Source: Ranitomeya imitator (Eukaryota). From it: a stretch of DNA of 64,000 nt. Positions 22,132 to 57,348 of the stretch are shown piece by piece; the first letter of the stretch is position 1; each line of letters opens with the position of its first letter. The DNA is taken from positions 749,580,001 to 749,644,000 of the forward strand of contig NC_091282.1 in NCBI RefSeq assembly GCF_032444005.1. Direction: 5' to 3'. The notes beneath the pieces were generated by a model, which saw nothing but the letters and a program-made list of their open reading frames with translations, was not told the origin of the DNA and did not search any database. The translations under genes and the position numbers were made by a program.

Positions 22132-22133
22132 AT

Positions 22134-22601: not shown

Positions 22602-23642
22602 ATGTCGCAGCACGGAGACGCCGCAGCACTCGGCAACGCTAATGCAGCTGAAAGACAGAGTGTCAATAGAGAGTCCGGCAGCGCAGCGGTGCAAGGAGTG
22701 GCGCCCATCATGCCGGTGCTGATGCCATATACCCCGGGTGGCCCATGGCTTCCAATGTATGAAGGTGAGCCTAATACCCTTGACGATTTCAGAAAAAAGA
22801 TGCTGGCCCATTTTGACATGTTCCCTGTGGGTGAAGTTCAGCGTGTTAGTCTCCTGATGATGCAGTTAAGTGGCCATGCTAAGCGAGAACTCACAGCATG
22901 GGCAGCTGATCTAAAAGGCACTGTTGAACGCATATTTGCTGGATTAAAAGCTACATTTGAAACCACGGCCAGCAGCAAAGCTAAAATACGATTCTTTAGT
23001 TGCAAACAAAAAGCTAATGAGGGCGTGAGAGACTTTGCCTTAAACCTGCAGGAAGCCCTTAAATCACTTACACTGGCTGAACCCATTTTTAACACCGGAG
23101 CGGATAAACTGCTAAGAGATCAATTTATTGAGGGACTCTACACCCCTTCTCACCGGGGGCATGTGAGCATGCTTGTTTTTAAGAACCCTGAATTGACATT
23201 TGCCCAATTAAAGGAGAGCGCTATACGTCTCCAGCTGGCAGAGGCACCTCGGGATCAGGATCCTGCGCAACCCATGGCAGAGGCACCTCAACAACAGGGA
23301 GTGCCAGTGACATCAGCTATGTCCGGGGCCATTGCTAAGCCCCTGGGGCCCAGTACTAATGAGGCTCTTCAACAAAAGCTTGACTCTTTAGCTGATGTTG
23401 TTGCTTCAATGGCTAAAACCATGCAGGAGATGAGAGGACACAAGATGGAGTTGGCAAACTGTAGAGAGGATGTTCCATGGATGAGACCCCGGAGATACCC
23501 GACATGGAGAGGACGACCCCGCGACCGCTACCAACCGGATGGACAGCCCATTTGCCGCCGTTGCCAGCAGCCGGGCCACTTTGCACGAGATTGTGATTTA
23601 AACGGGAATCCCCTGGGAATGCGGGCCGCTTCGCAGGAATGA
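22602..23642 (+). CDS. gag: Gag (346 aa) with CCHC zinc knuckle
   Basis: Open ORF. Capsid-like LRDQFIEGL. CRRCQQPGHFARDC knuckle. Confidence 0.95.
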   Translation: MSQHGDAAALGNANAAERQSVNRESGSAAVQGVAPIMPVLMPYTPGGPWLPMYEGEPNTLDDFRKKMLAHFDMFPVGEVQRVSLLMMQLSGHAKRELTAWAADLKGTVERIFAGLKATFETTASSKAKIRFFSCKQKANEGVRDFALNLQEALKSLTLAEPIFNTGADKLLRDQFIEGLYTPSHRGHVSMLVFKNPELTFAQLKESAIRLQLAEAPRDQDPAQPMAEAPQQQGVPVTSAMSGAIAKPLGPSTNEALQQKLDSLADVVASMAKTMQEMRGHKMELANCREDVPWMRPRRYPTWRGRPRDRYQPDGQPICRRCQQPGHFARDCDLNGNPLGMRAASQE

Positions 23643-26600: not shown

Positions 26601-27775
26601 CCGTAAAAGATCTGACAGCAAAAACAGCAGCCAAAGCGTTCCAAACGTACTTTTGTAGACCCCATGGATATCCGGAACAGGTTCTCACCGACCAAGGTAC
26701 AGCCTTTGAATCAGAGATCTTCAGAGAATTCTGTAATATGTATGGTTGCAAAAAGATCCGGACGACGGCCTATCATCCACAAACAAACGGCTTATGCGAG
26801 AAGATGAACCATATTGTAATAGACCTACTAAAGACTTTACCTGAGACAGAAAGGAATCAATGGCCAGAGAAATTGCCTGACTTGGTGGATCTGTATAATC
26901 ATGTCCCGGTGAGCTCCACCAACTGCACCCCAGCTTACCTTATGCGTGCAAGACCCGGCCAATTACCAATCGATCTAGAAATGGGAATTCTGAAACCAGA
27001 CGCAGAAGTTCAAGACTCCAATTGGGATATCATACGGCAAAAGCAGTATCGCCAAGTGCAAGAGAGTGTGGAAAGAAGCCTTCAGCAAACTAGAGAAAGA
27101 CAAGAGCGAACTTTCAACCAGAATGCTCTAGCGACCCCATTAAGACCAGGTGACCAAGTGCTCAAGAGAAATCGTCGAACCAATAAACTGGACAATCAGT
27201 GGGAAGCCGTACCCTACACAGTTTTACCAACAAGAGTGGATAATCCTAAAATGTGTCTCATTAGCAAAAACGGAGGCTTAACATCTGTACTAGTGTCAAG
27301 AGACAATCTTAAATTATGTCCGGAAGCATTGAAAGAGCCAGACGTTGTCCAGCCAGAACCAGAAGTTATTCAACCCATACAGGTTCAACCAGTAAAGGAA
27401 AAAGAAGAGGAAGTGTATCACACCTGTATAGGAGACTTTCCCAAAACCCTACTAACATACCATGGTGCAGTAGTGGTTCCCATGGTGGCCTTTTACCCAA
27501 CACCGAACCCAATACCAGAAGTCCCAAGACAGGAAGAGGCTGACCCCGTACTACAGGAGGTTCCAGGCCAGGAAGAACAGATTCCTGGTCAGAGTAATCC
27601 CATTCACGGTGGACTTGCCAACTCCATAGTCGTGGAATTATCTTTAGCAGAGCGGGCAGATACTACATCCGCAGTAGACAGTAGTACACCACATGAAGAG
27701 ACACCGCTATTACGTAGATCACAGCGTAGTACCCAGGGTCAATTACCGGCCAGGTATGCAGATTACCAACTATAA
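23639..27775 (+). CDS. pol: Pol polyprotein PR-RT-RNaseH-IN (1378 aa from first Met), -1 frame relative to gag
   Basis: LLDTGS protease. YLDD RT. RNase H DAS...ELLAV...DNNPL...DALS. Integrase H-H-CxxC plus D,D(35)E-type core. No stops. Confidence 0.97.
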   Translation: MNFQGPTPWHDRYIGGRPIIPIVLDGIPLNALLDTGSQISSIPYILYKRYWADADIDKGPSDVELDIWASNGKLVPKLGFREMTIKIGKVELKKQGIIVVDVDRRNCEPTVLIGMNVLENCFSEVISVLQQIAETAQSCQQRVLRREIKVLMLRQQVEVAGGEIGSVRVSDPTSIVIPPKTEMLVWCRAAIGTKGRDYQALIEPVYTNSRPTILTARGIVEVHRGRVPVRLLNCGEEEVTLPRYATMAKLYTVDNNAITTIEPLEPTCQVEGNGSDGEMEDWCQQLHVGINSTPTHQKQGVYRLVTEYEQVFSKHPLDFGRIEGVEHTIPTGDHPPIKERYRPIPPAHYQCAKDMLREMKQAGVIRDSCSPWAAPLVIVKKKDGTMRMCVDYRKINNITHKDAYPLPRIEESLTALKSANYFSTLDLTSGYWQVPVAERDKEKTAFTTPMGLCEFNRMPFGLCNASGTFQRLMECCLGHKNFETVLLYLDDVIVYSKTYEQHLIDLAEVFEALSRYGMKVKPSKCHLLKPKVQYLGHIVSSEGVAPDPEKISAIRDWPRPTSAKEVRQFLGLVGYYRRFIKGFTKLAAPLQDTLVGQTKKPSNRNPPFQWNDEREDSFEQLKKALTGEEVLAYPDYHKPFILYTDASNVGLGAVLSQKQEGREKVIAFASRKLRPTERNSENYSSFKLELLAVVWAVTERFKHYLAAAEFIVYTDNNPLTHLDTAKLGALEQRWIARLSNYNFIIKYRAGRKNGNADALSRMPHLRDVEEETGELEEIEIPAFHRPKAKHHQSSTYQKQQEVNFNPLAHHRWADTQDSNPAVKLVKELLTEQSAYPYEDAPEETHQLWKERGKMFLYQGKLCRRNTNPKTHELVWQIIVPKQDVKMVLEAYHNGAGHFGWKKLEVLLRERFYWVGMRKSIEQWCRNCGPCNLRRNDQKNQRAPLQPIITKQPLELVAMDHVKLTPSRSGYVYALTIVDHYSRFLVVVPVKDLTAKTAAKAFQTYFCRPHGYPEQVLTDQGTAFESEIFREFCNMYGCKKIRTTAYHPQTNGLCEKMNHIVIDLLKTLPETERNQWPEKLPDLVDLYNHVPVSSTNCTPAYLMRARPGQLPIDLEMGILKPDAEVQDSNWDIIRQKQYRQVQESVERSLQQTRERQERTFNQNALATPLRPGDQVLKRNRRTNKLDNQWEAVPYTVLPTRVDNPKMCLISKNGGLTSVLVSRDNLKLCPEALKEPDVVQPEPEVIQPIQVQPVKEKEEEVYHTCIGDFPKTLLTYHGAVVVPMVAFYPTPNPIPEVPRQEEADPVLQEVPGQEEQIPGQSNPIHGGLANSIVVELSLAERADTTSAVDSSTPHEETPLLRRSQRSTQGQLPARYADYQL

Positions 27776-28242
27776 AGCTCATAATGTGAATTCTATATAT
27801 GTTATGCCGTATATAGTTAAACAGAAAATGTAGTATAGTCATTGCTATCAGTCTGCAACGTTTAAGCCCAGTGCCTACAGAGACTTGTCTGTATGAACTT
27901 ATTGCATATTCTTGAACTTTTTATCAGCCCGGAGGCACTAAATCAAAGCTCCGGAAAGACTGCTTTTTGAACTTTGCTTTTTGCTCTTTTTGAACTTTCT
28001 TTAGACTTTATATTGATAACTCCGTTGGAAAAATGGAACTAAATTCCTGGACACTAAGTACAGTGCCGTTCCTAATACCTTCAAGGATAGAACTGTATTA
28101 ATGGACGCTATTTGAAGTGACTTTTTACAGAACTCTATTTTTGTTTCCTTGAGTGGTTTTTGTAACTTTTCATTTTTAAGACTCTGTACATATTAATTGT
28201 TATTTCAAAATGTTATTGTCCCACAGTCCCGGAGTACTGTTC

Positions 28243-28257
28243 TTAACTAAGGGGGAA
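28243..28257 (+). promoter_or_regulatory. Polypurine tract
   Basis: TTAACTAAGGGGGAA immediately before the 3' LTR. Confidence 0.85.
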
Positions 28258-29146
28258 TGTGGCACCCCTAGGGGTATTTGCCACAAAAATAGTTACTGAC
28301 AGTAAGTACAAATACTAAAATAGCAAGACTGCACTACCACCTCCGGCCAGAAGGGGGAGCTCCAGAGACTCCCCTTGATCCATTCTGGTCTGAGAGAAGA
28401 AATGGCAGTTGGGCCAAGGAGCTGATAGTGAGAGGTCATACAGTTGAATCTCTAACAGCCCTGTGACTGTTACCAGGCCTAAATCACCGGCCTGAGGAGA
28501 AGAGGGATAGAGAAAAAGGACATTGTGAGAACCGGGTAGCATTAATCACTACCCAGAACAGGCGCAAAGACGGATACCGGATCCGTGGCTGTATTCATTA
28601 TATATAATACAGCAACCGGAAAAACGTGAGGTGATATCAGCTTCACTAGGGTCGGATGCAGCAACAGACACAGAGTTCAGCGGTACTCCCGGAGGGGGTA
28701 AACCGATAAAAGGACTCGGGTTGCCCGTCGAACCAGGACCCGGAGGGGACAGATTGGGCCGGCAGCCAGTTCACATACAGCAGCAGGGCCACACAGAAAT
28801 TGCGCACAATAAGAGGCGAAGACCCCGGCAGGGTCAAAGTAACTCAGAGTTCCCATACAGACTCCGGTGACAGGACTGGTTGTAAATCCTTTTATGTTAA
28901 AGTAAACTGGTTAAACGTTTCAGTGCCTCAGTCTTTCATTTGGACAATAGCCATCTATCCAGGATCAGGATCGTCACCGCTGGGAGAACCTGCTGCTGAT
29001 CAAGTAAGTGCCTGTCCCCTCATGATACCCCTCACACTGTGCATTGCCTGAGGCCACAGCACCGGGTCAAGCCACCCGTGACATCCCCCTCAAGAGACAG
29101 ACTCCATTGGTCCGGTGCTGGGTATCCCGGTCTCCTGGGCGTCACA
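28258..29146 (+). repeat. 3' LTR
   Basis: Direct repeat of 21243-22131. Confidence 0.97.
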
Positions 29147-30445
29147 CTTATATCCTTCTTCAAGTTAGCTTTGTGTAATGAAGGAGCTTGTCTAGAAATG
29201 CTGTATGTGCATTTGCAAATTAATTGCTTGGTCACCCTTTTAATTATGTTTTAGGATTAGAATTAAATGAGTTCTACAGAAAAAAACAAGCAATTTACAA
29301 ATATACTTCAAGACTGAAAGGTGCCCCCATGTTCATGTGCAAGTCCCATTCCCAGGTCATGGCAGGTCTTCTCCCAGTTAGTGTCCCAAACAGGACAATG
29401 CTTCCTGTGTCGGCCTGTAATTAGAGCAGAGCTGTTTGGAAACTCAGCCAGCCCCCTTCACACATTGCTCTAGTTAAAAAAAAGGCTGTCCAGTATAGGG
29501 CAGATATTCGAGGAAGACCTTCAAAGTCCAAGGACAAGAACTTTAGATCAGAACACCTTTTAGATCTCAAGAGTACTAGTAAGTGTCATGACTTAATAAT
29601 GTAGGTTTATTAACCCCTTTGAAACTAAGCCTGTTTTCACCTAAATGACAGGGCCAATTTTTACAATTCTGACTACTGTCACTTTATAAGGTTATAACTC
29701 TGGAAAGCTTCAACGGATCCTAGTGATTCTGACACTGTTTTCTTGTGACATATTGCACTTTATGATAATGGTAAGATTTCTTCAATATGACTTGTGTTTA
29801 TTTGTCAAAAAAATGAAAGTTTGGTGAAAATTTTGCAATTTTCAAACTTTTAGTTTTTATGCCTGTAATTGCCCAAATGTCTGCTTTACATCAGCACAAT
29901 TTTGGAAACACAGATTTCTTTGTTAGGACGTTATAAGGGTTAAAAAATGACCAGCGATTTCTCATTTTTACAATAACATTTTGCAAAACCTTTTTTTAGG
30001 GACCACCTCACACTTGAAGTGACTTTGAGGGGACTATATGACAGAAAATGACTATAAGGGACACCATTCCAAAAACTGCACCCCTCAAGGTACTCAAAAC
30101 CACATTCAAGAAGTTTATTAACCCTTCGGGTGCTTCACAGGAATTTTTGGAATGTTTAAAAAAATGAACATCTAACTTTTTTCACCAAAAAATTACTTCA
30201 GATCCAATTTATTTTATTTTACTAAGGGTAACAGGAGAAATTGGACTCCAAAAGTTGTTGTAAAATTTGTCCTGAGTGCGCTGATGCAACATATATGCAG
30301 GTAAACCACTGTTTGGGCGCACAGCAGAGCTCGGAAGGGAAGGAGCGCCCTTTTGACTTTTCAATGCAAAATTGGTTGGAATCGAGATCAGACGCGATGT
30401 TGCATTTGGAGAGCCCCTGATGTGCCTAAACAGTGGAAACCCCCC

Positions 30446-30735: not shown

Positions 30736-31434
30736 TAATGGGAAAATGGAAATAAGTACATTTTTTTATTTTATTATTTTTCCCTAACTAAGGGGGTGAT
30801 AAAGGGGGTCTGATTTACTATTTATAGCGGGGTTTTTTAGCGGGTTTTTATGTTTGGCAGCTGTCACACACTAAAAGACGCTTTTTATTGCAAAAAATAG
30901 ATTTTACATTGTCGGGGTCGTCACGACAATACCCTTCATCCACCAGTCATTCCAAATCAGATTAGGAGCATGTTGGTACCGGATAAGAATGAGTCAGACA
31001 CAATGCTGGTTCAAACTCATAGCATGCTCGTGTGTCCACACGTAGTGGGAACGTCACAGCAACTACTGAACTTTATTTCCTAAAACACAATATTACATGA
31101 TCTATTGGGGGAAGGTGTGCAGAGGGCGGGGATAGGCAGGGGTTAAGCAATGTATCTAGTATTCAGTCCTTCTGATTGGCTCTGGCATCTTCAGATGAAT
31201 CTTCCTTTGTCTACATCTTGTCCAGTTTCGAATTCCAGAGAAATGTTACTTGTCCTTCTGGAATGTGCAACTTGTTCCTTCAGCCTGAAAGTGGGGCAAA
31301 GGTGAATACTGGCAGCCATCTTAAATACAGTTAAATTTGCATTTGGCAAGCAAAGGGGAAAAACTTATTGTTTCACAGCATAAGAGTATATAAAAGTACA
31401 AAAGAGTATTAAGACGTATATTTTTACCTTGACA

Positions 31435-31447
31435 ATCCCCCCTAAAC
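31435..31447 (-). promoter_or_regulatory. ERV polypurine tract
   Basis: Minus strand TTTAGGGGGGAT directly before the 3' LTR. Confidence 0.75.
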
Positions 31448-31610
31448 ACTAAGTTTTTCCCTAAAAAGAAAGATCCTTCGAGACTGTCCATATGATGGGG
31501 AAAGGGGAGGTGGATTTCTTCATCCAGACACCTCAGAAGCTCTCCCCTTGTGAGAGGCCTCCAGGCAGCTGAACCCTTCACTAGCTTCACATGGAGTTCT
31601 CCCGCTGTCC

Positions 31611-33302
31611 CTAAACTAAATCTCTTAGCATCATCTGAGAGTAAGGGGTTTTGTCTATCTTCTTGAGGGGGACGTACTTAGGGATCTCCCCTGGATCAGT
31701 ACTATCGTACTCTGGTGGGTCTACTTCTTGGTTGAGGAAGGTGCCAGTCGGAGTTGCCTCAGTGATTATCTTTTTATACAGGGGAATAACACAACAGAGG
31801 ACTATCGATCCAACTACAAGAAGGGCAATCAGTACCAGACAAGCTTGTTGAAGGAATCCTTTGAGCCCACCCAACCAACCGGAAAAGAAAGATGTGTATG
31901 TGTCTGCTCCTGCATTAGTTTTTAATTCTGCTGCTAACCCATTTATCTTTTTAAGAGCTATCAGAGTTCTGAGGGATATAGGTACAACATTCCTCTCCCA
32001 CCATCCCACAAACTCCTCCTTTCTCAGCTAAGATCATATCGAGGGCTAGTCGGTTTTGGAGGGTCATTCTAGTGTTAGGGCCCAACTCCTCAACTATACC
32101 CTGGAAAGCATCACAGGTAAAATTGACAAACCTTTGTTCACTGTAATATATGTAATTGATCCCATCAACATTTTTATTAATCTGCACCTGTGGGATTAAA
32201 GAAACAAAGCTAGCATAGATCTGGTTCTCGGCTTTAAACTGGTCAGGCACCCCCCTTGGCACTCCAATGCCATCGACATATACCAATGGATCTTCTTCAT
32301 AACTCATGTGGAGCTGATCGAGACTTCTCTTCTTTCTGGTATATTCATCAGGTGTCTCTGGATCCCAAGGTAAAATCTTGAACTGCATAGCTAGTTTAAC
32401 AAGGGTACATTGACCTGTCCAGGCATTAGGCAACCTAGGATGGAGCTTACCATCTCCACATAACCAATAAATGTCGTACATATACTGTGTATGATTAGCT
32501 AGCAAATCAGTATCCAGGGAACTGTTCTCTTTGCAGAAACCTATCTCGAAGACCCCTACTGGTGTACCTGTAGTGTCATGGGAATTATAGCAGGTATAAT
32601 TATCAGCTAACACAGTTATCCCTCCTGGGACCTTTAGTTTAGGTGCTTCATGAATTAGTGGGACATAATCTGAGCAATCAGTGGGCTTTAGACCCTTCAA
32701 CAGATTCATAACACAGGTAGTGGTATTGTCATCAGGAAAAAACAATGCATGTGTGTGTAGATATATATTCGCTGCAGCACAAGCAATACATCCTACAGAG
32801 ATACTCTGGACTCTTACATTGTACCTTACCCATTCTAACCATAAATTTGTCCTTGGGACTGTTTGTGTTTCTATAGGGAAGACTTCTTGCCAACTAAGAC
32901 CTGGAATGGGGATTACTTCGTTAACTATATTTTGCAAACGTTCACCTAGGCCTGGTTTAGCTGTACTGGTAACGGGGGCCTTGGTTGGTCTGAAGCTAAT
33001 ATCCTGGAGCTGTATATGGCCTAAATTCCCATAGTATCCACTATTAAACACATTATGAAAATATCTTCCCAGCACAATTGTTATCTCTGGTAACACATAT
33101 ATAATACTGGATAATTCCCTCTACCACCCGCTGAGTCTCGGGGCACTTGACTACATCGCAGAAATCAAATCTCCAGATATTTACCGGGGCCGTTAGGTTT
33201 TACCCAGAGAATAGTGACAACGGAATTCTTATTTACAATAGGGGCCGGAAAGGTAGGGGCAAGGATGACCCCTGGCCCTAGGACCAAAAACAACAGCAAC
33301 AT
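31611..33302 (-). pseudogene. env: Gamma-type env, frameshifted
   Basis: Hydrophobic leader MLLLFLVLGPGVILA from 33302. SU CIAC (CxxC). Furin site RKKR/SL. ISD LQNRLALDMILAEKGGVC and CX6CC. Membrane anchor (ACLVLIALLVVGSIVLCC) in another frame. Frameshifts near 33170, 33070 and 31970. Confidence 0.92.
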
Positions 33303-33479
33303 TTTCCTTCGATCACCACTGTGACTAAGCGCTGGTTCGGTCTCTTTTGCAGTGTGCAGCGTAGATCCAGGTGCTCTTTCCTTCAGGTTTTACTGACATA
33401 GCTTTTCACGACCATAAGACCACCAGGCTTCAAATTGTGACCAATATCGGTTTCTGCTGAATCTGGAAGGAAAGAAAAA

Positions 33480-35135
33480 AACTAAAACATAGGTGTTAGC
33501 AACATTTTTACTAAGCTGAATAACATATTGAACAGCACGGTCAGTTTCTTCTGACAACTAATGAGACTGGAAATTTGCAACTGAGAACCTAGCACCAAAC
33601 AATATCTCATATGGGGACAGGCCATGTTTTGCCTTATGGGTAGTACGAACGTGTAAGAGCCCTGACCATGGAGCCGTAGTCTCCTGCATCATTTTGGTCA
33701 ATTGTCCCTTCAGTGCACCGTTCAGCCTCTTAACTTTCCCACTGGATTGTGGAGAGTATGGAGGGCTACAGTGGATCCAAGCATTGTCAGAACCTCCTGA
33801 TACACATGAGAAGGAAAGGCCGGGTCTTGGTCACTTTCAGCAACTTCTGGAACACCATATCTGTATTCGACTTCCATCACCAGTTTCTTCTCTGTGGTCT
33901 TTGCAGTCACGTTGGTAACGGAGAATGCTTCTGGCCAACTGGAGAACATGTCGACAACCACCAGACAATATTCATACCTTCCAGACTTAGGCAACGTGAT
34001 GAGGTCCTGTCGTCCACCTGGAGCTTTTGGAAAGGATAATCAGGCTTAGCAAGATGCTTCGGGGTTACACGTTGAAGTTGACCGGGTTTGCAGGTCTGAC
34101 AGATACCTCGATGTGTGGGCCCATGCGCCCACGTGACAATAGCAGGGTAAATCCGCTTAGAGAGACACACAAGTTGGCCCTTTTTCCAGCGACCATTGTC
34201 CATACGTGCTCCATCAGCTTTCCACTGCTTCACTTCTTTCTTTGGAGACATTCTCTGCATCGTCATTAAGCGGTCTTGCGGGGTCCGGCAGAAAACCTCA
34301 GTCTGGCATAGATCATCAGGTTCCTGTAGAGTCAGTGTTTCTTGTAACTGTTTACGCTGAGAGCGTGTGGTCACCATAGCTGGTATGGTCTGTTCAACGG
34401 GTAGAAGAGCAGCGGCTTTTGCTTGCATATCCGCAAAGGCGTTACCAATAGTATGTGGTCTGTTCCATGGTACCGTGCTCCTTAACTTTGATAATGGCCA
34501 CCTGAGTAGGTAATTCGATTGAGTCCATGAGGGTTTTAACAGCTTCAGCATTCTTCACTGAGTCCCGGCGGTAGTAACAAATCCTCGATTGGCTCATAGG
34601 CTCCGAAATCATGAACAATACCAAATGCATACTGTGAGTCCGTGTATATATTAGCCCGTCTGTCTTTGGCTTGTGCTGACAGGGAGGGAGGGAGTGCAGC
34701 TCCGTGCACTACAGTGTCTTCCGTAGTAACAGCGTATCCTGTGTGGAGTCTGCCAAAATCATCACCATATCTTGAACAGTCTTTCAGGGCCTTGTAGAGA
34801 GGTAACATTATGCGGGATGCGTCCGGTATCCACTGACAACAATAAGTACATAATCCAAGGAAACGCTGGAGTTCAGTCTCATCTTTTGGGAATGGAAGGG
34901 AGCTGACGGCTATTTCTCTTCTTTCTTCTGTGAGGTGTCTGGCACCCTGAAGGAGACAGTGACCCAAAAATATCACTTGACCAAGGCAGAACCGAATTTT
35001 CAAGGCCGAAACCCGACAGTTCAGATCTGCCGGATACTTGAGAAAACTAACAGTGGCAACAATGGCTTCCTGCTCTGTCTGTGCACACAACAAAAAAAAA
35101 CAAAAAATTACCCACATACTGAAGCAGCATAACAT
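33480..35135 (-). pseudogene. pol: ERV pol remnants (RT, RNase H, integrase) with large deletions
   Basis: QVIFLGH, LQRFLGLCTYCCQWIPD (RT). ANIYTDSQYAFGIVHDFG (RNase H). YCLVVVDMFSSWPEAF...ESDQ (integrase). Confidence 0.88.
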
Positions 35136-35249
35136 AGGGATATTCTAACTGACAGGGTTAAACACACTATCCCCCTATTTTTTTTTTTTTTTTAAACTGA
35201 TTGGGAAAGGACATGTGAGATACACATCTCATTATACTCATCTACATAG

Positions 35250-36069
35250 GGGTTATATAACATAAATACATCTGACCATCATCTTGGCTCACCAACTCTC
35301 TAGGTCTGCTTAGGTGCACTTATACGTCCATCATATTATCTTTGTCTGTAAAATGGGAAAGGTTTGTTCTCAGGGTCAGCCAATTATTTTAGCGTAGCTA
35401 GCTAGTCAGAGGGCTTCCAGGGATAATACTCCTGTATCTGTCTTACACTACCTGATGTGGTTGGTTCTCTAGTGGTGGGGGTGACTAGATGACCGGTTGG
35501 GGTTGACATGACATGCTGGTCTACAGCTCCTTCCCAAAAGGATTACTGTCAGCCTACTCCCAAAGTTAATGTCCCCACTACCCACTATCCTGTGTCAGCT
35601 TCTTATATCACTACATCACTACATGTGATCTTATCTGGACAGGAATCAGTGTAATTCACTTAGGTCGAGTTGCAGCACAGTTTATACAAGCATTTCTCCA
35701 GTCTGGGTTTGTCTGACCGCAATATTTACAAATCCATCTGTCTTGTCTTGGTCTGAAAACCAACATGGCGAGAGAGATTTCCAGACACAGGGTTAAAATG
35801 AATATTGGAGCGTAAGACTAGATTTGTGTAAGGGAGGGGGAGCTGGAGCTGAAGTCTTCTGCTTCTTGGGCCACTGATAAGGAAGCGAGCTGCGAGTTGT
35901 GTCCTTGAAGCTGCGAGGGGAGGGGGACTAGAGAGCGAGTGAGGATCGCTGCAGCTGCTGATACAGACTGGGTTAAGTTCTTCTGGAAACTCTGGCCCCC
36001 CTTTCCCTGGCCGGCAGCACAAAGAGGAGAAGTCAAAAAACAATTCGCGCAGGGGTTCACCCCTCCCAT
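35250..36069 (-). pseudogene. gag: ERV gag remnants
   Basis: MGG start at 36069. Decayed capsid-like YYPWKPSD...LADPENKP near 35300-35440. Many stops. Confidence 0.5.
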
Positions 36070-36737
36070 CAGCTACGAACACACAGATAAGAATTTACAG
36101 CATTCCTCAACACAAAAGAAGAAAAACAACAACGCAGCTATCTGACTCCCCCCTCCCATTGGGTGTCTCGGAAAACCACACAGAGTGACGAAATACAGCA
36201 GTTCTCAGACTCAATTAATTTCTACAAAACCTTCACACAATTCCTATGCCAGAACACCTTAGAAAAACCAATGATTGAGATATTTTATAACCAAACACGG
36301 GCTCTGCATCCTTTCATCTTTCCTCTCCATCAACCTTTTTTCCATCCCTCATTCTTTATCCTCGCGCAACTCGCAGATGAGCTTGCACTTGTTCTAACAG
36401 TCCTTTATCTTTCAACATTCTTGACTGCCTTCTTGCCCTCCCGTGACTCTTCTATTGTCTTGACTTCCACAGCATCCTCATCTAACTCGTGGGGCACGGA
36501 CTTCTTCTGCCATAAGAGACGCAACATGACTCACAGAATACTACGCCCTTCTGCAGTAGGCCGCTGACAGCGACAGCAACACTTGTGTCCTAACACGGAG
36601 CCTCGCGCTCCACGTGTTATGAATAAAGAGCCTCACGCTCAATATTTTTCCCTAACCTGAACACCAGTGATTACAGTCTGTCCTGTCACGATATTCTAAA
36701 CGTTGGGAGGCTGTCTCCTAGTGAGACCCCTCCACTG

Positions 36738-37090
36738 TGTTTCTGGTGGTCCCCCTCTTGGGACGTCTTAATTACCGATATGTGCAAGTGTGTGCAAGTG
36801 TTTCTGGTGGTCCCCCTCTTGGGACGTCTTAATTACCGATATGTGCAAGTGTGTGTGCACGTGTTTCTGGTGGTCCCCCTCTTGGGACGTCTTAATTACC
36901 GATATGTGCAAGTGTGTGCAAGTGTTTCTGGTGGTCCCCCTCTTGGGACGTCTTAATTACCGATATGTGCAAGTGTGTGCAAGTGTTTCTGGTGGTCCCC
37001 CTCTTGGGACGTCTTAATTACCGATATGTGCAAGTGTGTGTGCACGTGTTTCTGGTGGTCCCCCTCTTGGGACGTCTTAATTACCGATGT
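36738..37090. repeat. Six tandem 60-63-bp units in the ERV leader
   Basis: GTGTTTCTGGTGGTCCCCCTCTTGGGACGTCTTAATTACCGAT starts at about 36738, 36798, 36861, 36922, 36983 and 37046. Confidence 0.95.
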
Positions 37091-37524
37091 ATGTGCGTGC
37101 AATATCACAGAGGCTACGTCTCCTATCCCTTCCTCAAAGCCGCCCCCAATCCACAAACTTCTCAATCTTTCACTCTATCACTACTAGGCAACAGTCACGG
37201 GTAGGGTGGTTGAATGGAGTTCAATGACCAGTGGAGGAGGTGTGGTGTACACGAGGACGCGCAGAGTGCAACGTCTCTCAGTTGCTGGTTCGAAGCGTGG
37301 CACGGGATCGCGCTCGGTCTCACCACTCGACCGGTCACTCCCCAGACCCAAGGAGACCACAGACTAACCAATAACGGCTGAAACACTAGCAAGTGTGACA
37401 CATACATAGTATGCGATCTCCACTTACCGTGTTTGGAGGGTGATCAGTCCTCGAGGTCAGCCACTACGGGTGTCGTCCACGGACGTCCAGGCATGGGTCC
37501 AGGGGGTCTCGGATCGCGGGCCAC

Positions 37525-37544
37525 GCCCCACGTTGGTTGCGCCA
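37525..37544 (-). promoter_or_regulatory. ERV PBS, tRNA-Lys(CUU)-like with a 2-nt insertion
   Basis: TGGCGCAACCAACGTGGGGC versus canonical Lys1,2 PBS TGGCGCCCAACGTGGGGC. Confidence 0.8.
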
Positions 37545-40406
37545 AATTGTCGGGGTCGTCACGACAATACCCTTCATCCACCAGTCATTCCAAATCAGAT
37601 TAGGAGCATGTTGGTACCGGATAAGAATGAGTCAGACACAATGCTGGTTCAAACTCATAGCATGCTCGTGTGTCCACACGTAGTGGGAACGTCACAGCAA
37701 CTACTGAACTTTATTTCCTAAAACACAATATTACATGATCTATTGGGGGAAGGTTTGCAGAGGGCGGGGATAGGCAGGGGTTAAGCAATGTATCTAGTAT
37801 TCAGTCCTTCTGATTGGCTCTGGCATCTTCTGATGAATCTTCCTTTGTCTACATCTTGTCCAGTTTCGAATTCCAGAGAAATGTTACTTGTCCTTCTGGA
37901 ATGTGCAACTTGTTCCTTCAGCCTGAAAGTGGGGCAAAGGTGAATACTGGCAGCCATCTTAAATACAGTTAAATTTGCATTTGGCAAGCAAAGGGGAAAA
38001 ACTTATTGTTTCACAGCATAAGAGTATATAAAAGTACAAAAGAGTATAAAGACGTATATTTTTACCTTGACAACATCACCACATTTTGAAAGCTATAATG
38101 TTTCCATATTTTGGCCCATAGAGTCATATCAGGTCTAGTTTTTGGTGGGACAAGTTGACGTTTTTATTGGTACCCTTTTCGGGCACATGACATTTTTTGA
38201 TCGCTTTATATTCTGATTTCTGGGAGGGAGAATGACCAAAACCAGCAATTCCTGAATCTCTTTTAGGCGGGGCATTTATACCGATCTGCGTATAGTAAAA
38301 TTGATAAAGCAGTTTTATTCTTCGGGTCAGTACCTCAGCGATACCTCATTTATATCATTTTTTTATGTTTTGGCGCTTTTACACAATAAAAACTATTTTA
38401 TAGAAAAAATAATTATTTTTGCATCGCTTTACTCTGAGAGCTACAACTTTTTTATTTTTCTGCTCATGGAGCTGTGTTGTGGCTTGTTTTTTGCAGAACA
38501 AGATGACGTTTTCAGCGGTACCATTTTTATTTACATCCATCTTTTTGATCACATTTTATTGCACTTTTGTTCGGCGGTATGCATTGTTTTTTGCCTCGTT
38601 TTTTATTTATTTTTTATGGTGTTCACTCAAGGGGTTAACTAGTGGGACAGTTTTATAGAGCGAGGCAACAATACCAAATATGTGTACTTTTATTATTTTA
38701 TTTTTTATTTACATAAATAAATGGATTTATTGGAAAAATATTTATATATTTTTTCTTTATGTGGGGATTTAAAAAAAAATATTTTTACACATTCTAATTT
38801 TTTTTAAACTTTTTAACATTGTCCCAGGTTGGGAAATCACTATATTACATCAGATCGCTGATCTGACACTTTGCACAGCACTGTGTCAGATCAGCGATCT
38901 GACAGGCAGTGAAGGAGGCTTGCCGCCTCCTGTTCTCAGTAGGTGCTCTCAAGCCACCTCACTGCAGGACCCGGAAGGACCCCGCGTCCATCTTGGATAG
39001 GGGGGTCTCCATGGAGACCATGAAAATAGCGTGATCACATCGCGTTATTCTGACGGAAGTGCGCAGGGAGCCCTCGTCCCTGCGCAATGCCCCTCTATAG
39101 TGCTGTTACTACTGACAACGGCATCAGAGGGGTTAAATGCCCACGATCGGTGCTAGCTCGCGGCGCCGTACTAGTACTGCTGCTGGCACAAATGCAGTTC
39201 CAACAGAGCAGTATTAGTACGGCGCATGTCGCAAAGAATTCTCTTTAGCTGGATAAACCTTTTTATTATATTTTACATTATCATTTTATTTTTTTTTCTA
39301 TTCAATATTTAGATTTTTACAAAAGCATTTGGAAAATCTCAATAAATATGAGTATTACATGAAGCATTACTCACACAGTCCTATGGTATCTGCTTGACAC
39401 ATTAACTTCATCTAGTCAGCGTAAATTTTATGATCTATTTTAACAATTCTAGTTTATGGTAATGAATCTGAACCATGAAATGGTGCAGAAGCGAATGTAG
39501 GATTGTCACATAGGAGCCAATCTTTTCAAGACCGACACGTGTTCTCTAGCTGAACCATTAGAGGGAATTACATCTGCAAACAAATTCTCCGCCGTGAACA
39601 ATGAGCAAGATTCAGCCTTCCATCGAAGAATAAAATGTACTGGTGTGGACATAGCAGCACAGGACTTATTTAAATGTTAATGAGAGAGGCTTTCCGAATG
39701 ATGGGACTACTAATGAAACAGTCCCAAAGAAACCCCATATTCTCTGCTCAACACTTTTATGGTGCCACTCTATAAACACAGGGACATATGCAGGGCTAAC
39801 AATCTGACTCTGCTTATTTGGTAATAGACTTGAGGTGGCCGGTTTCCATTAGAATGAGAGTTTATTGTAGCGGCAAGAAACTAACATTGCATTTATTGCA
39901 AATATTGTACAATAAGGATAGCGTAAATAATTGAAAAGAGTAGGAAAATATTTTTGACATGTAAAGCGCATTATGGGAGTTGGAATTGACGGTATCCAAA
40001 ATGCTTTGTGTGCAACGTATCTCCCTTAATGCAGTGTAGGTACATTAATAATCTACATCTCCATCTGGTTATGTTATAGCGACATATACTTCTCTGCTGA
40101 CAATGTAATAGCGGTGTAACTAAATCTGATAGCAAGGCATCCTAATAGGGCGTACCGTCAAGAGGACATGGTGCGTTGAATGGTCAACATTTAGAAATGA
40201 TCATTTATTTTTAGGGCATCATTGATTCCATGGTGTTGTACATGAGAAGAGGGGGTTACGTACAAAATACAAATATAAATTACAGTAAGCAAATTAACAA
40301 TGACAGACTGGTACAGTGAAGAAAGGGCCCTGTTCTTGTGGGCTTACAGTCTACAGGGTGATGGGGAAGGTAGGTTGGGGGTTGCGGCAGTTCCGGTAGT
40401 GGTGAT

Positions 40407-49010: not shown

Positions 49011-50432
49011 TGGGGTCAACATGCAAGGATCAAAACATCTAGGACTGAACATGCCTGGGGGTAAAATATACAGGACCCTAATTGCTGGGTATTCCTGTGG
49101 CTGCCTTTTCAGCAGCTCACCCAGTGTCTCTTCTGGCTGGCCTTAAAGGAATATTATCACCCTAGAACAAAAAAAAACTGGCATACTTACCCGTCACAGT
49201 TGCAGCTCCTTGGGTCACAGAGTGCAGTCTAGCGGTTTCTCGTGATGTCTTCTTCTGTTTCTGGCTGTCTTTTCATCTTACCTGGATCACTGATCCATGA
49301 AGCATGATGAATGCAGCAGCAGTGAGGCCGAATGTCTCCAGGCCGCTCACTGACATGATATCACTCCTGCCCCATTCATCAGTCAATCCACGGGGCAGGA
49401 TACCTCTCCTGTCACCAAAACACTGCTGCGCAGTACCATGATGAGATCAGGCAGAAGAGGAAGCTGGGAAAAAGGAGAAGACTCGTGGTGGCCTCCGGAT
49501 CCAGCATGGCGATCACCAGCCAACACAGCCAGGAGAAGATCAGGCAAAGATGAGCAAAAGACCTCTAGGTAAGTACGAGGATGGGAAGATCGGCAGCATG
49601 CCTACCTGTTATGATCTGGTGATTAAGGAGCGACATGCGTCTAGCTCTGAGCAGGTGGCAACTATACTGACCGCAGTCCCTAAGCTCAACACAACACTAG
49701 AAGTAGCTGTGGAATGCTCCTAACTCTACCTAGGCATCTCGTCACAGCCTAAGAGCTAACTACCCCTAAAGAAAGAAGCAGGAAAACTATCTTGCCTCAG
49801 AGAAAATCCCCAAAGGATAGATTAGCCCCCCACAAATAATGACTGTGAGAGGAGAAGGAAATGACATACGTAGTATGAAACAAGATTTAGCACAGGAGGC
49901 CACATCTAGCTAGATAGAAATAGTACAGAACAGAACGCTGTGCGGTCAGTAATAAAAACTAGAAAAAGTCCACCGCAGAGAAATGCAAAAATCTCCACAC
50001 CTGACTAAAGGTGTGGAGGGCAAACTCTGCTGCCCAGAGCTTCCAGCTTAACTGAATAGATCCATACTGAAAAGCTGGACAAATGAACAAAAACAAAGAA
50101 AGTGCTGAACAACAAAGTCCACAACAAGAGAACCGCAAAAGGACAAGCAAGGACTTAGCTTTGATGAACTGGTCAGAGTGTCAGGAAAGTCCTAAGAGCA
50201 ATGACTCCAGGCAGGAACAATTGACAACTGGCATTGAATGAGGGATAAGGCCAGACTAATATAGCCGAGCCAGAAAGACGATCAGTGAAAACAGCTGCTG
50301 AAGCTAAATCCAAGAAGCAGCCATACCACTAAAAACCACAGGAGGGAGCCAAAGAGCAGAGCTCACAAAAATGCTACTTACAACCACCGGAGGGAGCCCA
50401 AGAGCGGAATTCACAACAGTACCCCCCCCCCC

Positions 50433-53400
50433 TTAAGGAGTGGTCACCGAACCCTCACCAGAGCCCCCAGGCCGATCAGGATGAGCCAAATGAAAAGCAC
50501 GAACCAAATCGGCGGCATGAACATCGGAGGCAACAACCCAAGAATTATCCTCCTGGCCATAACCCTTCCACTTGACAAGATACTGAAGCTTCCGCCTCGA
50601 AAAACGAGAATCCAAAATTTTCTCAACCACATATTCCAACTCCCCCTCAACCAACACCGGGGCAGGAGGATCAACAGATGGAACAACGGGCACCACATAT
50701 CTCCGCAACAAAGATCTATGGAAAACATTGTGGATGGCAAAAGAGGCTGGAAAGGCCAAACGAAAAGACACAGGATTGATAATCTCAGAAATCTTATAAG
50801 GACCAATAAACCGAGGCTTGAACTTAGGGGAAGAAACCTTCATAGGAACATGACGAGAGGACAACCAAACCAAATCCCCCACACGAAGCCGAGGACCAAC
50901 ACACCAACGGCGGTTAGCAAAACTCTGAGCCTTTTCCTGGGACAACGTCAAATTGTCTACCACATGAGTCCAAATCTGCTGTAACCTGTCCATCACAGAA
51001 TCAACACCAGGACTATCAGAAGGCTCAACCTGCCCTGAAGAAAAACGAGGATGGAAACCAAAATTACAAAAGAAAGGCGAAACCAAAGTAGCCGAACTGG
51101 CCCGATTATTAAGGGCAAACTCGGCCAACTGCAAGAAAGTCACCCAATCATCCTGATCAGCAGATACAAAGCATCTCAAATAGGTTTCCAAGGTCTGATT
51201 AGTTCGCTCAGTTTGGCCATTGGTCTGAAGATGGAAGAAAAAGACAAATCAATACCCATCCTAGCACAAAAGGCCCGCCAAAACCTGGAAACAAACTGGG
51301 AACCTCTGTCAGACACAATATTCTCCACATGCTGAAAAAACAATGGAACCAAATCAGAGGAGGAAGGCAATTTAGGCAAAGGTACCAAATGGACCATTTT
51401 AGAGAACCGGTCACAAACCACCCAGATAACAGACATCCTCTGGGTCACAGGAAGATCTGAAATAAAATCCATGGAAATATGCGTCCAAGGCCTCTCCGGG
51501 ACGGGCAAAGGCAAAAGCAACCCACTAGCGCGGGAACAGCAAGGCTTGGCTCGGGCGCAAGTCCCACAGGACTGCACAAAAGCACGGACATCGCGCGACA
51601 AGGAAGGCCACCAAAAGGACCTAGCAACCAAATCTCTGGTACCAAAAATCCCAGGATGACCAGCCAACACTGAACAATGGACCTCAGAAATCACCTTACT
51701 CGTCCATCTATCAGGAACAAACAGCTTCCCCACAGGACAGCGGTTAGGCCTATCAGCCTGAAATTCCTGAAGCACTCGCCGCAAATCAGGGGAGATGGCA
51801 GAAAGAATCACCCCTTCCTTAAGAATGCCAACCGGCTCAAGGACTCCAGGAGAATCCGGCAAAAAACTCCTAGAGAGGGCATCCGCCTTAACATTCTTAG
51901 ATCCTGGAAGATATGAGACCACAAAATCAAAACGGGAGAAAAACAGGGACCATCGAGCCTGTCTAGGGTTCAGCCGCTTGGCCGACTCAAGGTAAATCAA
52001 ATTCTTATGATCGGTCAAGATCACAATGCGGTGCTTGGCTCCCTCAAGCCAATGACGCCACTCCTCAAATGCCCACTTCATAACCAACAACTCCCGATTG
52101 CCGACATCATAATTGCGTTCCGCAGGCGAAAACTTTCGGGAAAAGAAGGCACATGGCTTCATCAAAGAACCATCAGAATTCCTCTGTGACAAAACGGCCC
52201 CTGCCCCAATCTCAGAAGTGTCAACCTCAACCTGAAAATTAAGAGAAACATCCGGTTGACGCAACACAGGGGCAGAAGTAAATCGGCGTTTAAGCTCCTG
52301 AAAGGCATCAACAGCCTCAGAGGACCAATTAGTCACATCAGCGCCTTTCTTCATCAAATCGGTCAGGGGTTTAACCACACTAGAGAAGTTGGCAATGAAA
52401 CGGCGATAAAAATTAGCAAAGCCCAAAAATTTCTGAAGGCTCTTCACAGATGTGGGTTGAATCCAGTCATGAATGGCTTGGACCTTAACAGGATCCATTT
52501 CTATAGACGAAGGAGAAAAAATAAACCCCAAAAAAGAGACCTTCTGAACTCCAAATAGGCACTTAGACCCCTTCACAAATAGAGCATTATCACGAAGGAT
52601 CTGGAATACCATCCTGACCTGCTTCACATGAGACTCCCAATCATCGGAAAAAATCAAAATATCATCCAAATATACAACCATGAATTTATCAAGATAATTG
52701 CGGAAAATATCATGCATGAAAGACTGGAACACAGATGGAGCATTAGAGAGCCCAAATGGCATCACAAGGTATTCAAACTGGCCTTCGGGCGTATTAAATG
52801 CAGTCTTCCATTCGTCACCCTGTTTAATACGAACAAGATTATATGCCCCTCGAAGGTCAATCTTGGTAAACCAACTAGCCCCCTTAATCCTAGCAAACAA
52901 ATCAGAGAGCAAAGGTAAAGGGTATTGGAATTTGACCGTGATCTTATTAAGAAGGCGATAATCAATACAAGGTCTTAAGGAGCCATCCTTCTTGGCAACA
53001 AAAAAGAATCCCGCTCCCAATGGTGACGAAGACGGCCGAATATGCCCCTTCTCTAAAGACTCCTTAACATAGCTCCGCATGGCGGCATGCTCTGGCACAG
53101 ACAGGTTGAAAAGTCGGCCCTTAGGGAACTTACAGCCAGGAATCAAGTCAATAGCACAATCACAGTCCCTATGTGGAGGAAGGGAACTGGACTTGGGCTC
53201 ATCGAATACATCCTGGAAATCTAACAAAAATTCAGGAACATCAGAAGAGGGGGAGGAGGAAATTGACATCAAAGGAACGTCACTATGTACCCCTTGACAA
53301 CCCCAACTAGTCACAGACATTGATTTCCAATCCAGCACTGGATTGTGTACTTGTAACCATGGAAAACCCAGTACAACAACATCATGTAAATTATGCAACA

Positions 53401-53665
53401 CCAGAAAACGGCAATCTTCCTGATGTGCAGGAGCCGTGTACATAGTCATCTGCGTCCAGTACTGAGGTTTATTCTTGGCCAATGGTGTAGCATCAATACC
53501 CCTCAAGGGTATGGGACTCTGCAAAGGCTGCAAAGAAAAACCACAGCGCCTAGCAAATTCTAAGTCCATTAAGTTCAGAGCAGCGCCTGAATCCACAAAT
53601 GCCATGACAGAAAAAGATGACAATGAGCAAATCAGGGTCACAGACAGGAGAAACTTAGGCTGCAC
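50433..53665 (-). pseudogene. pol: Chromovirus pol PR-RT-RNaseH-IN-chromodomain, one frameshift in integrase
   Basis: FVDSGA protease. YLDD RT. RNase H. HHCC and DFI...SDRG integrase, GPY/F module, chromodomain EYVVEKILDSR...YLVKWKGY...NSW. Small deletions near 51330 and 51240. Confidence 0.93.
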
Positions 53666-54477
53666 AGTACTAATGGTAACAGATCTAGCGACCCTCTTAA
53701 TACGCTTAGGGCAATCAGAAATAGTATGAGCAGAATCACCACAGTAAAAACACAGCCCATTCTGACGTCTGTATCCCCTCTGTTTGCTCTAGTCAAAATC
53801 CTATCACATTGCATGGGCTCAGGACTTCGCGCAGAGGACACTGCCATATGGTGCACCACTTTGCGTTCGCGCAGGCGCCGATCAATCTGAATGGCCAGAG
53901 ACATAGATTCGCTCAAACCAACAGGCGTGGGAAAACCCACCATAACATCTTTAAGGGCTTCAGAAAGACCCTTTCTGAAAATTGCTGCCAGAGCGTCCTC
54001 ATTCCATTTAGTGAGCACAGACCATTTTCTAAATTTCTGGCAGTATAATTCTGCCGCTTCCTGACCCTGACACAGGGCCAACAGTGTTTTCTCAGCATGC
54101 TCTACAGAGTTAGGTTCGTCATACAATAATCCGAGCGATTGAAAAAATGCATCTACATTAAGCAATGCCGGATTCCCTGACTCAAGTGAGAATGCCCAGT
54201 CCTGAGGGTCGCCACGCAGTAGAGAAATAACTATCTTTACTTGCTGAATGGGGTCACCAGAGGAACGGGGTTTCAGAGCAAAAAACAATTTGCAGTTATT
54301 TTTAAAGTTCAAAAACTTAGATCTATCCCCGTAAAACAAATCCGGTGTAGGAATTCTAGGCTCTAAGGCCGGAGTCTGAACCACATAATCTTGAATACTC
54401 TGTACTCTTGCAGCAAGCTGATCCACACGAGAAAACAAACCCTGAACATCCATGCCTGCATCCAAATCCCGAATCAC
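53638..54477 (-). pseudogene. gag: Chromovirus gag, frameshifted before the CCHC knuckle
   Basis: PDLFYGDRSKF...F.KGLSEALKD...LAIQIDRRLRER (PEG10/RTL-like Gag). Knuckle LCFYCGDSAHTISDC is out of frame near 53780. Confidence 0.88.
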
Positions 54478-54583: not shown

Positions 54584-54592
54584 GCCAGTTGT
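54584..54592 (-). promoter_or_regulatory. Non-tRNA (self-priming) PBS candidate
   Basis: Minus strand GT-ACAACTGGC, complementary to GCCAGTTGT at 55220-55212 within the LTR. Confidence 0.7.
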
Positions 54593-55244
54593 ACTGTTAT
54601 GATCTGGTGATTAAGGAGCGACATGCGTCTAGCTCTGAGCAGGTGGCAACTATACTGACCGCAGTCCCTAAGCTCAACACAACACTAGAAGTAGCCGTGG
54701 AATGCTCCTAACTCTACCTAGGCATCTCGTCACAGCCTAAGAGCTAACTACCCCTAAAGAAAGAAGCAGGAAAACTATCTTGCCTCAGAGAAAATCCCCA
54801 AAGGATAGATTAGCCCCCCACAAATAATGACTGTGAGAGGAGAAGGAAATGACATACTTAGTATGAAACAAGATTTAGCACAGGAGGCCACTTCTAGCTA
54901 GATAGAAATAGTACAGAACAGAACGCTGTGCGGTCAGTAATAAAAACTAGAAAAAGTCCACCGCAGAGAAATGCAAAAATCTCCACACCTGACTAAAGGT
55001 GTGGAGGGCAAACTCTGCTGCCCAGAGCTTCCAGCTTAACTGAATAGATCCATACTGAAAAGCTGGACAAATGAACAAAAACAAAGAAAGTGCTGAACAA
55101 CAAAGTCCACAACAAGAGAACCGCAAAAGGACAAGCAAGGACTTAGCTTTGATGAACTGGTCAGAGTGTCAGGAAAGTCCTAAGAGCAATGACTCCAGGC
55201 AGGAACAATTGACAACTGGCATTGAATGAGGGATAAGGCCAGAC

Positions 55245-55251
55245 TAATATA
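55245..55251 (-). promoter_or_regulatory. TATA-like box of the chromovirus 5' LTR
   Basis: Minus strand TATATTA, 31 nt upstream of the inferred start at 55220. Confidence 0.55.
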
Positions 55252-56167
55252 GCCGAGCCAGAAAGACGATCAGTGAAAACAGCTGCTGAAGCTAAATCCA
55301 AGAAGCAGCCATACCACTAAAAACCACAGGAGGGAGCCAAAGAGCAGAACTCACAAAAATGCTACTTACAACCACCGGAGGGAGCCCAAGAGCGGAATTC
55401 ACAACACCTACCGCAACATGATTGCTGAAAGCATGCTGCCTGATTTTGCTGTTCGGCATGAGAATACCCCTTTAGTGCAGGCTATGTATGGAAGCAGGGG
55501 GATTGTTGACTGACTACAGGGTTAATCCCACCAACCATCTCTGCAGAACTGAGATATTGGCTTTGCTGAACTAAAATGGTGGTTAACCAGCTTCTAAAGA
55601 ACCTCTTTATCAGGTTTTCAGAAGGGGGGTTTGGGGATCTGCCCTCACAGAACACTCTGCCAGTATACCAAAGAATGGAGCAGCAGATAAAAGTGGTATT
55701 CTCACTTCAGGATCCCTTTTTCTGTTGATGCCCATTCCTCAGATTAGGCCAAGAATAGGGTCCAGTTGTCTTCTGCATTGAACCAGCTGTTGATCAGCAA
55801 CTTTCAGCACCAATGACAATGGCAAGTGACTGAAAGCTGCAGCCATAGCTCTCCATGTTTTCAGTGAGATCCAGGGAAGATGTGACAGTGCCTGGAAAAG
55901 AGCTGATCCACCGTGACATGCCTTATACAGGGGCATGCACTGCTCTGTGCAGAGAAATGCATGTTCTGGACGGGACTCGGTTGTGTGCATTCAGTCTTTC
56001 AGTAACAAATGGCCCTTTGGGGTCAACCATTAAATTGGTGTGGCCGTTGGTGAATATGAATTTGACACCCCTGATCTAAGACAAGTGACCATTATTTTAC
56101 TGTCATGTACTAATGGTGTTACACATAATGGCTTCTTTTTGTCATCCATTACATATCATACTGTATC

Positions 56168-57348
56168 TAGTGATGAGCAAACCCAATCTGGAAAGTTCAG
56201 GGTTCGCATCGAACATTGCCTGCTCGGGTTCAACCACACCAACCCCAAACAGGCAATGTTTGGAGTTTGCTCATCAGAAAATAAAAATCACTTCTCTCCC
56301 CCTTGCTGAGGTCAAGACCTGTGTGGAGAGTCTTCTAGACCAAGGGAAGGGAATCCCTAGCTAGGAATCCTGAATGGGATTCCCTCGGGTACGATGACAT
56401 ATTCACACAATGTGGAAGTGCATGGAAGAGGACTGAAGAGGACCTGTTATGATCAGGTGACCTTGGAGCAGCATGAAAACTTTCACTGGAGTAGGTGGTA
56501 ACTATACTGACCGCAAACCCTGATCTTATCACCGCAACTAGAAGTAGCCGAACCCCAAAGGATAGGCAGCCCCCCACAAATATTGACTGTGAGTAGTAGA
56601 GGAAAAGACACACATAGGCAGAAAACAGGATTAAGCAAATGAGGCACACACTAGCTAAATAGGAAAGAATAGGACAGGATACTAAGCGGACAGTATTAAA
56701 AATCCTTCCAAAAATATCCGCAGCAGAAAATACAAAAACTCCACCATCTAACTAAAGATGTGGAGCGTATATCTGCATCTCCAGAGAATCCAACAAGACC
56801 GAGAAAACACTGACACAGACTAAGCTGGACAAGAGAAAAACAAATGAATAGCACAGAATATAAGCACACTGCATGTGTGCCACAGAAACAAAAACCAGAC
56901 ACTTATCTTTGCTTAATTGACAGCTGAGCATGAGACGCCAGAAAGTGATCCAACACTTCAGAAGAAACATTGACAACTGGCAAGGACTAATGAATCCTGC
57001 ACACCTAAATATCCCAGTCAGAACTGCAATCAGCAGATACACCTGGCCAGGACTGTGACTCAGAGACAACTGCATTCCCACCTAAACCACTGGAGGGAAC
57101 CCAAGAGCAGAATTCACAACAAGGACCCTCCACGTGCAAAAGGAGTAAGTAGCAATAAATATATTTTCTTTTTACTATCTGGTCCGTGATGAGGATGTGG
57201 TGGACAGATCCTCCACTCCTCTGAGTCTCCATACCCATTGAGTTCAATGGAGATGATAGTTTGGGGGTGCTGAATCCAAACCTGGATTTTCTTGTGTGTT
57301 TGAGATTGAACTGCCCGAACTGAACTTTGGCAGGTTCCCTTCTCACTA
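56168..57348. mobile_element. hAT-like MITE interrupted by a solo LTR
   Basis: TAGTGATGAGCAAACC ... GGTTCCCTTCTCACTA degenerate TIRs with GTTCGG-type subterminal repeats. Confidence 0.55.
56445..57121 (-). mobile_element. Chromovirus solo LTR (677 bp), a diverged relative of the 49607 LTRs
   Basis: TGTTATGATC...GAATTCACAACA termini shared with the 49607 element. AGGACC duplicated at 56439-56444 and 57122-57127. Confidence 0.9.

Follow-up and report, generated by a model that had tools for sequence, protein, structure and literature searches.

A chromodomain Ty3/gypsy retrotransposon of the poison frog Ranitomeya imitator with its own RNA 5' terminus as the likely primer of reverse transcription

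Within the 64-kb window (i.e., the whole stretch of DNA that was analysed), positions 55406-49607 of the minus strand are occupied by a chromodomain Ty3/gypsy LTR retrotransposon, hereafter called the frog element. All features of it given below lie on the minus strand. The element is bounded by a 5' LTR (54595-55406, TGTTGTGA...TCATAACA) and a 3' LTR (49607-50418), which were aligned to each other; both are 812 nt long and have TG...CA ends. The 5' LTR ends at 54595 with the letters ...GATCATAACA and is followed by a GT spacer (54593-54594), mirroring the AC that precedes the 3' LTR, and by the primer-binding site ACAACTGGC (54584-54592), which is not tRNA-like and is the complement of 55220-55212. 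Further downstream come gag (53638-54453; Retrotrans_gag, PF03732), a pol frame with protease, reverse transcriptase (RT), RNase H and the zinc finger and core of the integrase (51176-53788, stopping at a frame break within the integrase), the C-terminal part of the integrase (50433-51248) and a polypurine tract of the form AAG11 followed by TAC (50419-50434). The flanking repeat GGTAGG (6 nt) was found at 55407-55412 on the left and at 49606-49601 on the right. The order of Pfam domains (Gag, protease, RT, RNase H, integrase, SH3_Tf2-1, chromodomain), the LTR pair with TG...CA ends, the polypurine tract and the flanking duplication are all those of Ty3/gypsy elements. Moreover, the frame 51248-50433 gave Pfam matches to SH3_Tf2-1 (PF24626, E 1e-17) and to the chromodomain (PF00385, E 9e-14), and it is the chromodomain at the integrase C-terminus that defines a chromovirus, as which the element had been classified in the preliminary description. 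The best structurally solved relative was Ty3 Gag-Pol (E 6.9e-111), and the closest proteins were mostly from Ranitomeya imitator itself, with up to 97% identity over part of RT-RNase H, in agreement with the earlier assignment to a frog (amphibian) family. Recent activity had also been claimed, and a recent insertion is indeed borne out by the four differences between the two LTRs.

It should be stressed that this copy carries two frame breaks not mentioned in the preliminary description, one near 53790, as a result of which the zinc knuckle is read in the frame of pol instead of that of gag, and one in the integrase near 51250-51180. Either could be an assembly error; a truly broken copy would rely on the proteins of other copies. 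In four of the 18 listed sequencing runs, 119-450 contigs with 80-100% likeness lay on the LTR and leader, a depth that fits a multi-copy family and is not to be read as a copy number. Within the window no further copies of the LTR end were found (three exact matches, all of them already known). No match was obtained in IMG/VR with pol, the gag alignment, the pol alignment or a 22-nt primer-site pattern, nor in the metagenomes searched with the gag alignment.

The window contains several other repetitive elements. A diverged solo LTR of 677 nt (56445-57121, minus strand), about 76% alike in its alignable parts, lies close to the frog element and carries GGTCCT on either flank (57127-57122 and 56444-56439). 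A third chromovirus of another family (about 61570-59106, minus strand) is 5'-truncated and without a primer site, and retains only a short 3' LTR (59381-59106) with a G tract and TAC ahead of it. Two tRNA-type elements served as controls within the window. The one at 21243-29149 (plus strand) is a young non-chromodomain Ty3/gypsy element with LTRs 99.8% alike, a TGG-type primer site, an open gag with PNMA-like and CCHC matches, a pol frame of 1392 aa, and flanking 4-mers that differ at one base. The other, at 30908-38073 (minus strand), is a young endogenous retrovirus-like element with LTRs 99.4% alike, a 4-bp duplication, a TGG primer site, an env-like frame (33120-31951, TLV_coat match) and a tandem repeat in its leader (about 36737-37096). 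Finally, 959-nt inverted repeats (12607-13565 and 14994-15952), 98.7% alike and 1.4 kb apart, are probably a young DNA transposon.

The primer site of the frog element is the exact complement of a 9-mer in its own LTR: ACAACTGGC (54592-54584), which starts 2 nt past the 5' LTR, after the GT at 54594-54593, pairs with GCCAGTTGT (55220-55212). A TATA-like box, TATATTA (55251-55245), lies upstream, its first T being 31 nt above G55220, where GCCAGTTGT begins; from complementarity and fold, GCCAGTTGT is the predicted self-primer, i.e., the predicted first nine nucleotides of the RNA, with the box as its putative promoter element. The coordinates of complement and spacer and the 31-nt distance given in the preliminary description were thus all exact. 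When the first 22 nt after the LTR were compared with the 812-nt LTR, this 9-mer was the longest Watson-Crick complement. In 5000 dinucleotide shuffles of the LTR, a 9-mer complement starting 0-4 nt after the LTR arose in 3.2% of cases, and one starting 0-11 nt after it in 8.7%; with the additional condition of a TATA-like word 20-36 nt upstream, chosen after the site had been seen, the frequency was 0.1%. Taken alone, the 9-bp match appears modest, i.e., weak evidence in itself, and it becomes strong once the relatives described below are considered. Of the 223 variants recorded in the contigs of the four runs, 40 were compared with the two sites, and none of these 40 fell in 54584-54594 or 55212-55220, which has no bearing on covariation.

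The solo LTR retains part of this arrangement. It carries TGCCAGTTGTCAAT at 56982-56969, with TATTTA (57011-57006) located 30 nt above its G. This 14-mer is one of 10 exact words of at least 10 nt common to the two LTRs and the longest of those within the first 330 nt; the conserved block extends 5 nt past the paired bases. The solo LTR had previously been cited for keeping the motif, and the conservation itself stands. The support for pairing drawn from it does not, because the solo LTR has no primer site and is therefore no test of pairing.

The 681-nt leader starting from 55220 was then folded. In the unconstrained minimum-energy structure the 9-bp duplex was present, with pair probabilities of 0.89-0.97, and closed the whole 5' leader. 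After a 2-nt CA bulge, it is adjoined by a predicted helix of 6 bp (one of them G-U) between ATTGTT (55209-55204) and AACAGT at the LTR end (54598-54593). This second helix, absent from the preliminary description, is a candidate, as judged from the modelled structure, for the second duplex of the Tf1-type 'pretzel', whose third duplex was not found in the predicted fold of this leader. Duplex scans also revealed 11 bp between the leader and 55048-55038, a pairing that was set aside, as it was absent from the minimum-energy fold. When the interior of the leader was shuffled, 14 of 58 shuffles still gave the duplex with a probability of at least 0.9 (median 0.52), so that the predicted fold is not specific to the real leader interior. 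The duplex was also predicted from starts placed 7, 20 and 60 nt further up, and the fold therefore does not fix the start site.

For the comparison across related elements, a pol-alignment search yielded 159 loci, of which metagenomes contributed 80 and prokaryote genome bins 79. The latter (L081-L159) carry eukaryotic Ty3/gypsy pol, mostly on short contigs, and probably represent bin contamination. Together with three elements of the window this gave 162 elements, of which 51 had a direct repeat around pol and 35 allowed both LTR end and start to be called. A filter (ACA ends, divergence right after), set after the LTR calls had been seen, was passed by 27 of the 35, and eight were dropped. 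Among the 27, 8-14 bases complementary to the own LTR were found in 17 of the 19 elements without TGG, whereas none of the eight TGG elements reached eight such bases. Counting one element per family and leaving the frog element out, the ratio was 12/14 for non-TGG versus 0/8 for TGG elements (Fisher p 1.4e-4). In the cross-element control, in which each primer site was set against another LTR, at least eight bases matched in 4 of 210 pairs and nine in 1 of 210. The self-complementary sites of the relatives are mostly in different letters, and the spacer measured 2 nt in 13 of the 17 self-complementary elements; two non-TGG elements (L075 and L093) had no self-complementary match. These data show that the self-pairing is kept in changed letters across related elements. 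The relatives compared are mostly distant branches outside the vertebrate clade, and the frog family is represented by a single primer site. A chromodomain-like match was detected in all 18 non-TGG loci checked (in two of them outside the LTR pair) and in none of the four TGG loci checked. In one family (L014, L019, L046, L071, L078 and L080), the self-complementary 8-mer lies about 87 nt from the LTR 3' end, and R-U5 would therefore be very short; more pairing is present beyond a 1-nt bulge.

In a quick RT-RNase H tree (60 rows, no bootstrap), the frog element fell into one clade with L001, L003, L013, L081, L082 and proteins of frogs and fishes (SH-aLRT 98), and this vertebrate clade was nested among chromodomain elements, apart from the TGG elements. 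Its members differ in what they reveal about priming. L001 has a 9-bp match in other letters, with a spacer of 2 nt and TACATA at -30. L003 has an 11-bp match, to its 3' LTR only, and in L081 the 10-nt site contains a mismatch and the duplex was not formed in the fold (p 0.0). No LTR was called for L013 and L082. L095, from an unresolved neighbouring branch, has 10 bp, a spacer of 2 nt and TATAAA at -31; the TATA spacing is thus 30-31 nt in the frog element, the solo LTR, L001 and L095, an indirect sign of where the RNA would begin. It is also worth mentioning that the 5' repeat of L003 (870-1262) shares only its last 115 nt with the 3' LTR and has another LTR-like sequence upstream, being possibly an assembly chimera or a recombinant, and that the LTR of the fish-clade locus L081 (600-640) ends in the same 12 letters (CAGATCATAACA) as that of the frog element, while its primer site differs.

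On the basis of these comparisons, we consider it very likely that reverse transcription of the frog element is primed by the element's own RNA, namely by its 5' end, and not by a tRNA; this self-priming reading, already put forward in the preliminary description, is supported by the relatives, which keep a self-complementary site in different letters, while the tRNA-type elements do not. Transcription would start at G55220, 31 nt downstream of TATATTA, or slightly upstream of that G, and the first nine nucleotides of the RNA would reach back across about 630 nt to pair with the primer site, aided by the predicted 6-bp helix at the LTR end. The RNase H of the element, whose domain was identified by Pfam, would cut the RNA, as has been reported for Tf1, so that a 3' end becomes available. 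A primer of 11 nt, the length in Tf1, was rejected, since nucleotides 10-11 (CA) do not match the GT of the spacer; the primer would therefore have to end at nucleotide 9, by a cut or by trimming. Minus-strand DNA would then begin with AC after the RNA primer GCCAGUUGU, a start mirrored by the AC that lies just before the 3' LTR, downstream of the polypurine tract. The integrase would be expected to trim two extra bases at each DNA end.

Priming by a host tRNA or tRNA fragment at or near the site, with the self-complement being secondary, has in its favour that a TGG is present, 7 nt from the LTR end. None occurs within 5 nt, so that the earlier claim that no tRNA-like TGG adjoins the 5' LTR holds. 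Conserved C61 of tRNAs would need a G at position 16 of the primer site; the displaced TGG site has a T there, whereas G is present in both window controls and in six of the eight TGG elements. In these controls TGG follows the LTR by 2-3 nt, and at most 5 and 7 bases are self-complementary. No tRNA genes were found in the 64-kb window. A TGG at 7 nt is also beyond the 0-5 nt range in which tRNA sites were sought in PMC6317226, and half-tRNA primers were found there, as far as its available part goes, only in Ty1/copia lineages. Priming by tRNA would moreover leave unexplained why relatives with unrelated primer-site letters match their own LTRs, and we regard it as very unlikely. Somewhat less improbable, yet still very unlikely, is that the duplex has been selected for RNA folding, dimer formation or packaging, or that the primer comes from a second co-packaged RNA. 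The predicted duplex does close the entire 5' leader, and sequence gives no means of telling an intramolecular from an intermolecular duplex. In 13 of 17 elements, however, the duplex has its 3' edge at a distance of 2 nt from the LTR end, the point from which DNA must be synthesised; the element has no other primer site, and priming by such a duplex is reported as demonstrated for Tf1 (PMC4600332).

Mere coincidence, in which the LTR motif is a promoter element and its complement arose by chance, could draw on CAGTTG within the motif, which we take to be an E-box/Myb-like word, on the 3.2% chance level obtained without the TATA condition, and on the reach of the conserved block of the solo LTR beyond the paired bases. 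Against it stand the contrast of 17/19 versus 0/8, the 4 of 210 cross pairs, and the fact that L001, L003 and L095 pair without the CAGTTG word, which leaves coincidence extremely improbable. Self-priming is thus the reading that we prefer, and we can add to it, tentatively and with more doubt than belief, that vertebrate chromoviruses might run a distinct version of it, in which two helices are separated by a 2-nt bulge where a 9-nt primer is cut, both ends of the DNA carry retrovirus-like overhangs of 2 nt, and the target duplication of the frog family is 6 bp long instead of 5.

As to the last point, both insertions, that of the frog element and that of the solo LTR, are flanked by 6-nt repeats (GGTAGG and GGTCCT) that begin with GGT; this observation rests on two insertion sites. 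Seven distant chromovirus loci outside the vertebrate clade have 5-bp duplications, and among plant elements 6-bp duplications make up 0.4%. A 5-bp target duplication with CA ends was rejected, as the 5-mers differ. Because both 6-mers start with G, a 5-bp duplication with an LTR ending in CAG is conceivable; it would, however, break the usual CA joint, and at one end only. The repeats may possibly reflect a preferred target together with a duplication of 6 bp, or else a 5-bp duplication extended by a single G that was not trimmed. In the literature searched we found no statement on whether a 6-bp duplication is usual for vertebrate chromoviruses.

Self-priming is already described as the default of Tf1/sushi elements, those of vertebrates included, and the frog element represents the expected state for its clade. 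The discovery is accordingly modest, as a specialist would expect such a site in an element of this Tf1/sushi type. In the literature searched, which left most subscription journals outside, we found no experimental test of self-priming in a vertebrate and no account of it for poison frogs, and the frog-retrotransposon literature within it yielded no mention of self-priming. According to PMC4600332, self-priming has been demonstrated for Tf1 and only implicated in vertebrates, where it could be tested directly in a frog family that, like the present one, is young and has many copies. If the distinct version outlined above were true, this young and abundant family would be well suited for detecting, on the DNA of a vertebrate retroelement, an RNA primer that is not a tRNA. 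Furthermore, 3' tRNA fragments are described in PMC7472051 as targeting the primer site of tRNA-primed retroelements, and we would add that a tRNA-independent element should also lack the site that they target.

Several published systems can be compared with the frog element. Chromoviruses of the Tcn1 clade (mosses, fungi), which is sister to Tf1/sushi, likewise have no tRNA site and are predicted to self-prime (PMC6317226); their hosts are different, and the published self-primer calls comprise at least 10 bp, the minimum required in that work, of which the 9-bp self-match of the frog element falls one base short. The fission-yeast elements, i.e., Tf1/Tf2 of Schizosaccharomyces pombe, Tj1 of S. 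japonicus and Tosmo1-3, resemble the frog element in that the primer site can pair with the start of the RNA, that R and the LTR end form a further helix beside this duplex (both predicted in the frog element) and that the integrase carries a chromodomain, but they have no CCHC, which is present in the frog element. The primer of Tf1 has 11 nt. Its duplex measures 11 nt in comparison with 9 bp in the frog element, which, unlike Tf1, has a 2-nt spacer on both sides. The predicted frog leader fold resembles two of the three Tf1 duplexes described in bioRxiv 10.1101/2022.12.06.519325, the third not being predicted, and Tj1 makes a 5-bp target duplication (PMC4600332), whereas the frog insertions have 6-nt flanking repeats.

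The closest likeness is to the vertebrate Tf1/sushi elements (sushi-ichi of Takifugu, Amn-san and the Fungi/Vertebrates cluster of GyDB). The prediction of self-priming in sushi-like vertebrate elements, invoked in the preliminary description, agrees with the literature: self-primers are described in the Tf1/Sushi group of yeast and vertebrates (PMC6317226), self-priming is implicated from fungi to vertebrates (PMC4600332) and it is listed among the common traits of the Tf1/sushi group in the study of S. osmophilus (bioRxiv 10.1101/2022.12.06.519325), all three crediting its recognition in vertebrate members to Butler et al. 2001. Amn-san, the type found in frogs, is a lineage of vertebrate chromoviruses and the most frequent LTR element in Silurana (PMC4131045, in the available part of which priming is unmentioned). 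Because our tree held no named sushi or Amn-san sequence (nor one of Tf1), the subfamily of the frog element is not fixed by it. Nevertheless, the frog element has no TGG 0-5 nt from its LTR and a primer site complementary to that LTR, as is characteristic of the Tf1/sushi group, and it shares with the vertebrate members the Gag-PR-RT-RH-IN-chromodomain order, the CCHC knuckle, the absence of a tRNA site, the self-complementary primer site and a clade of fish and frog proteins.
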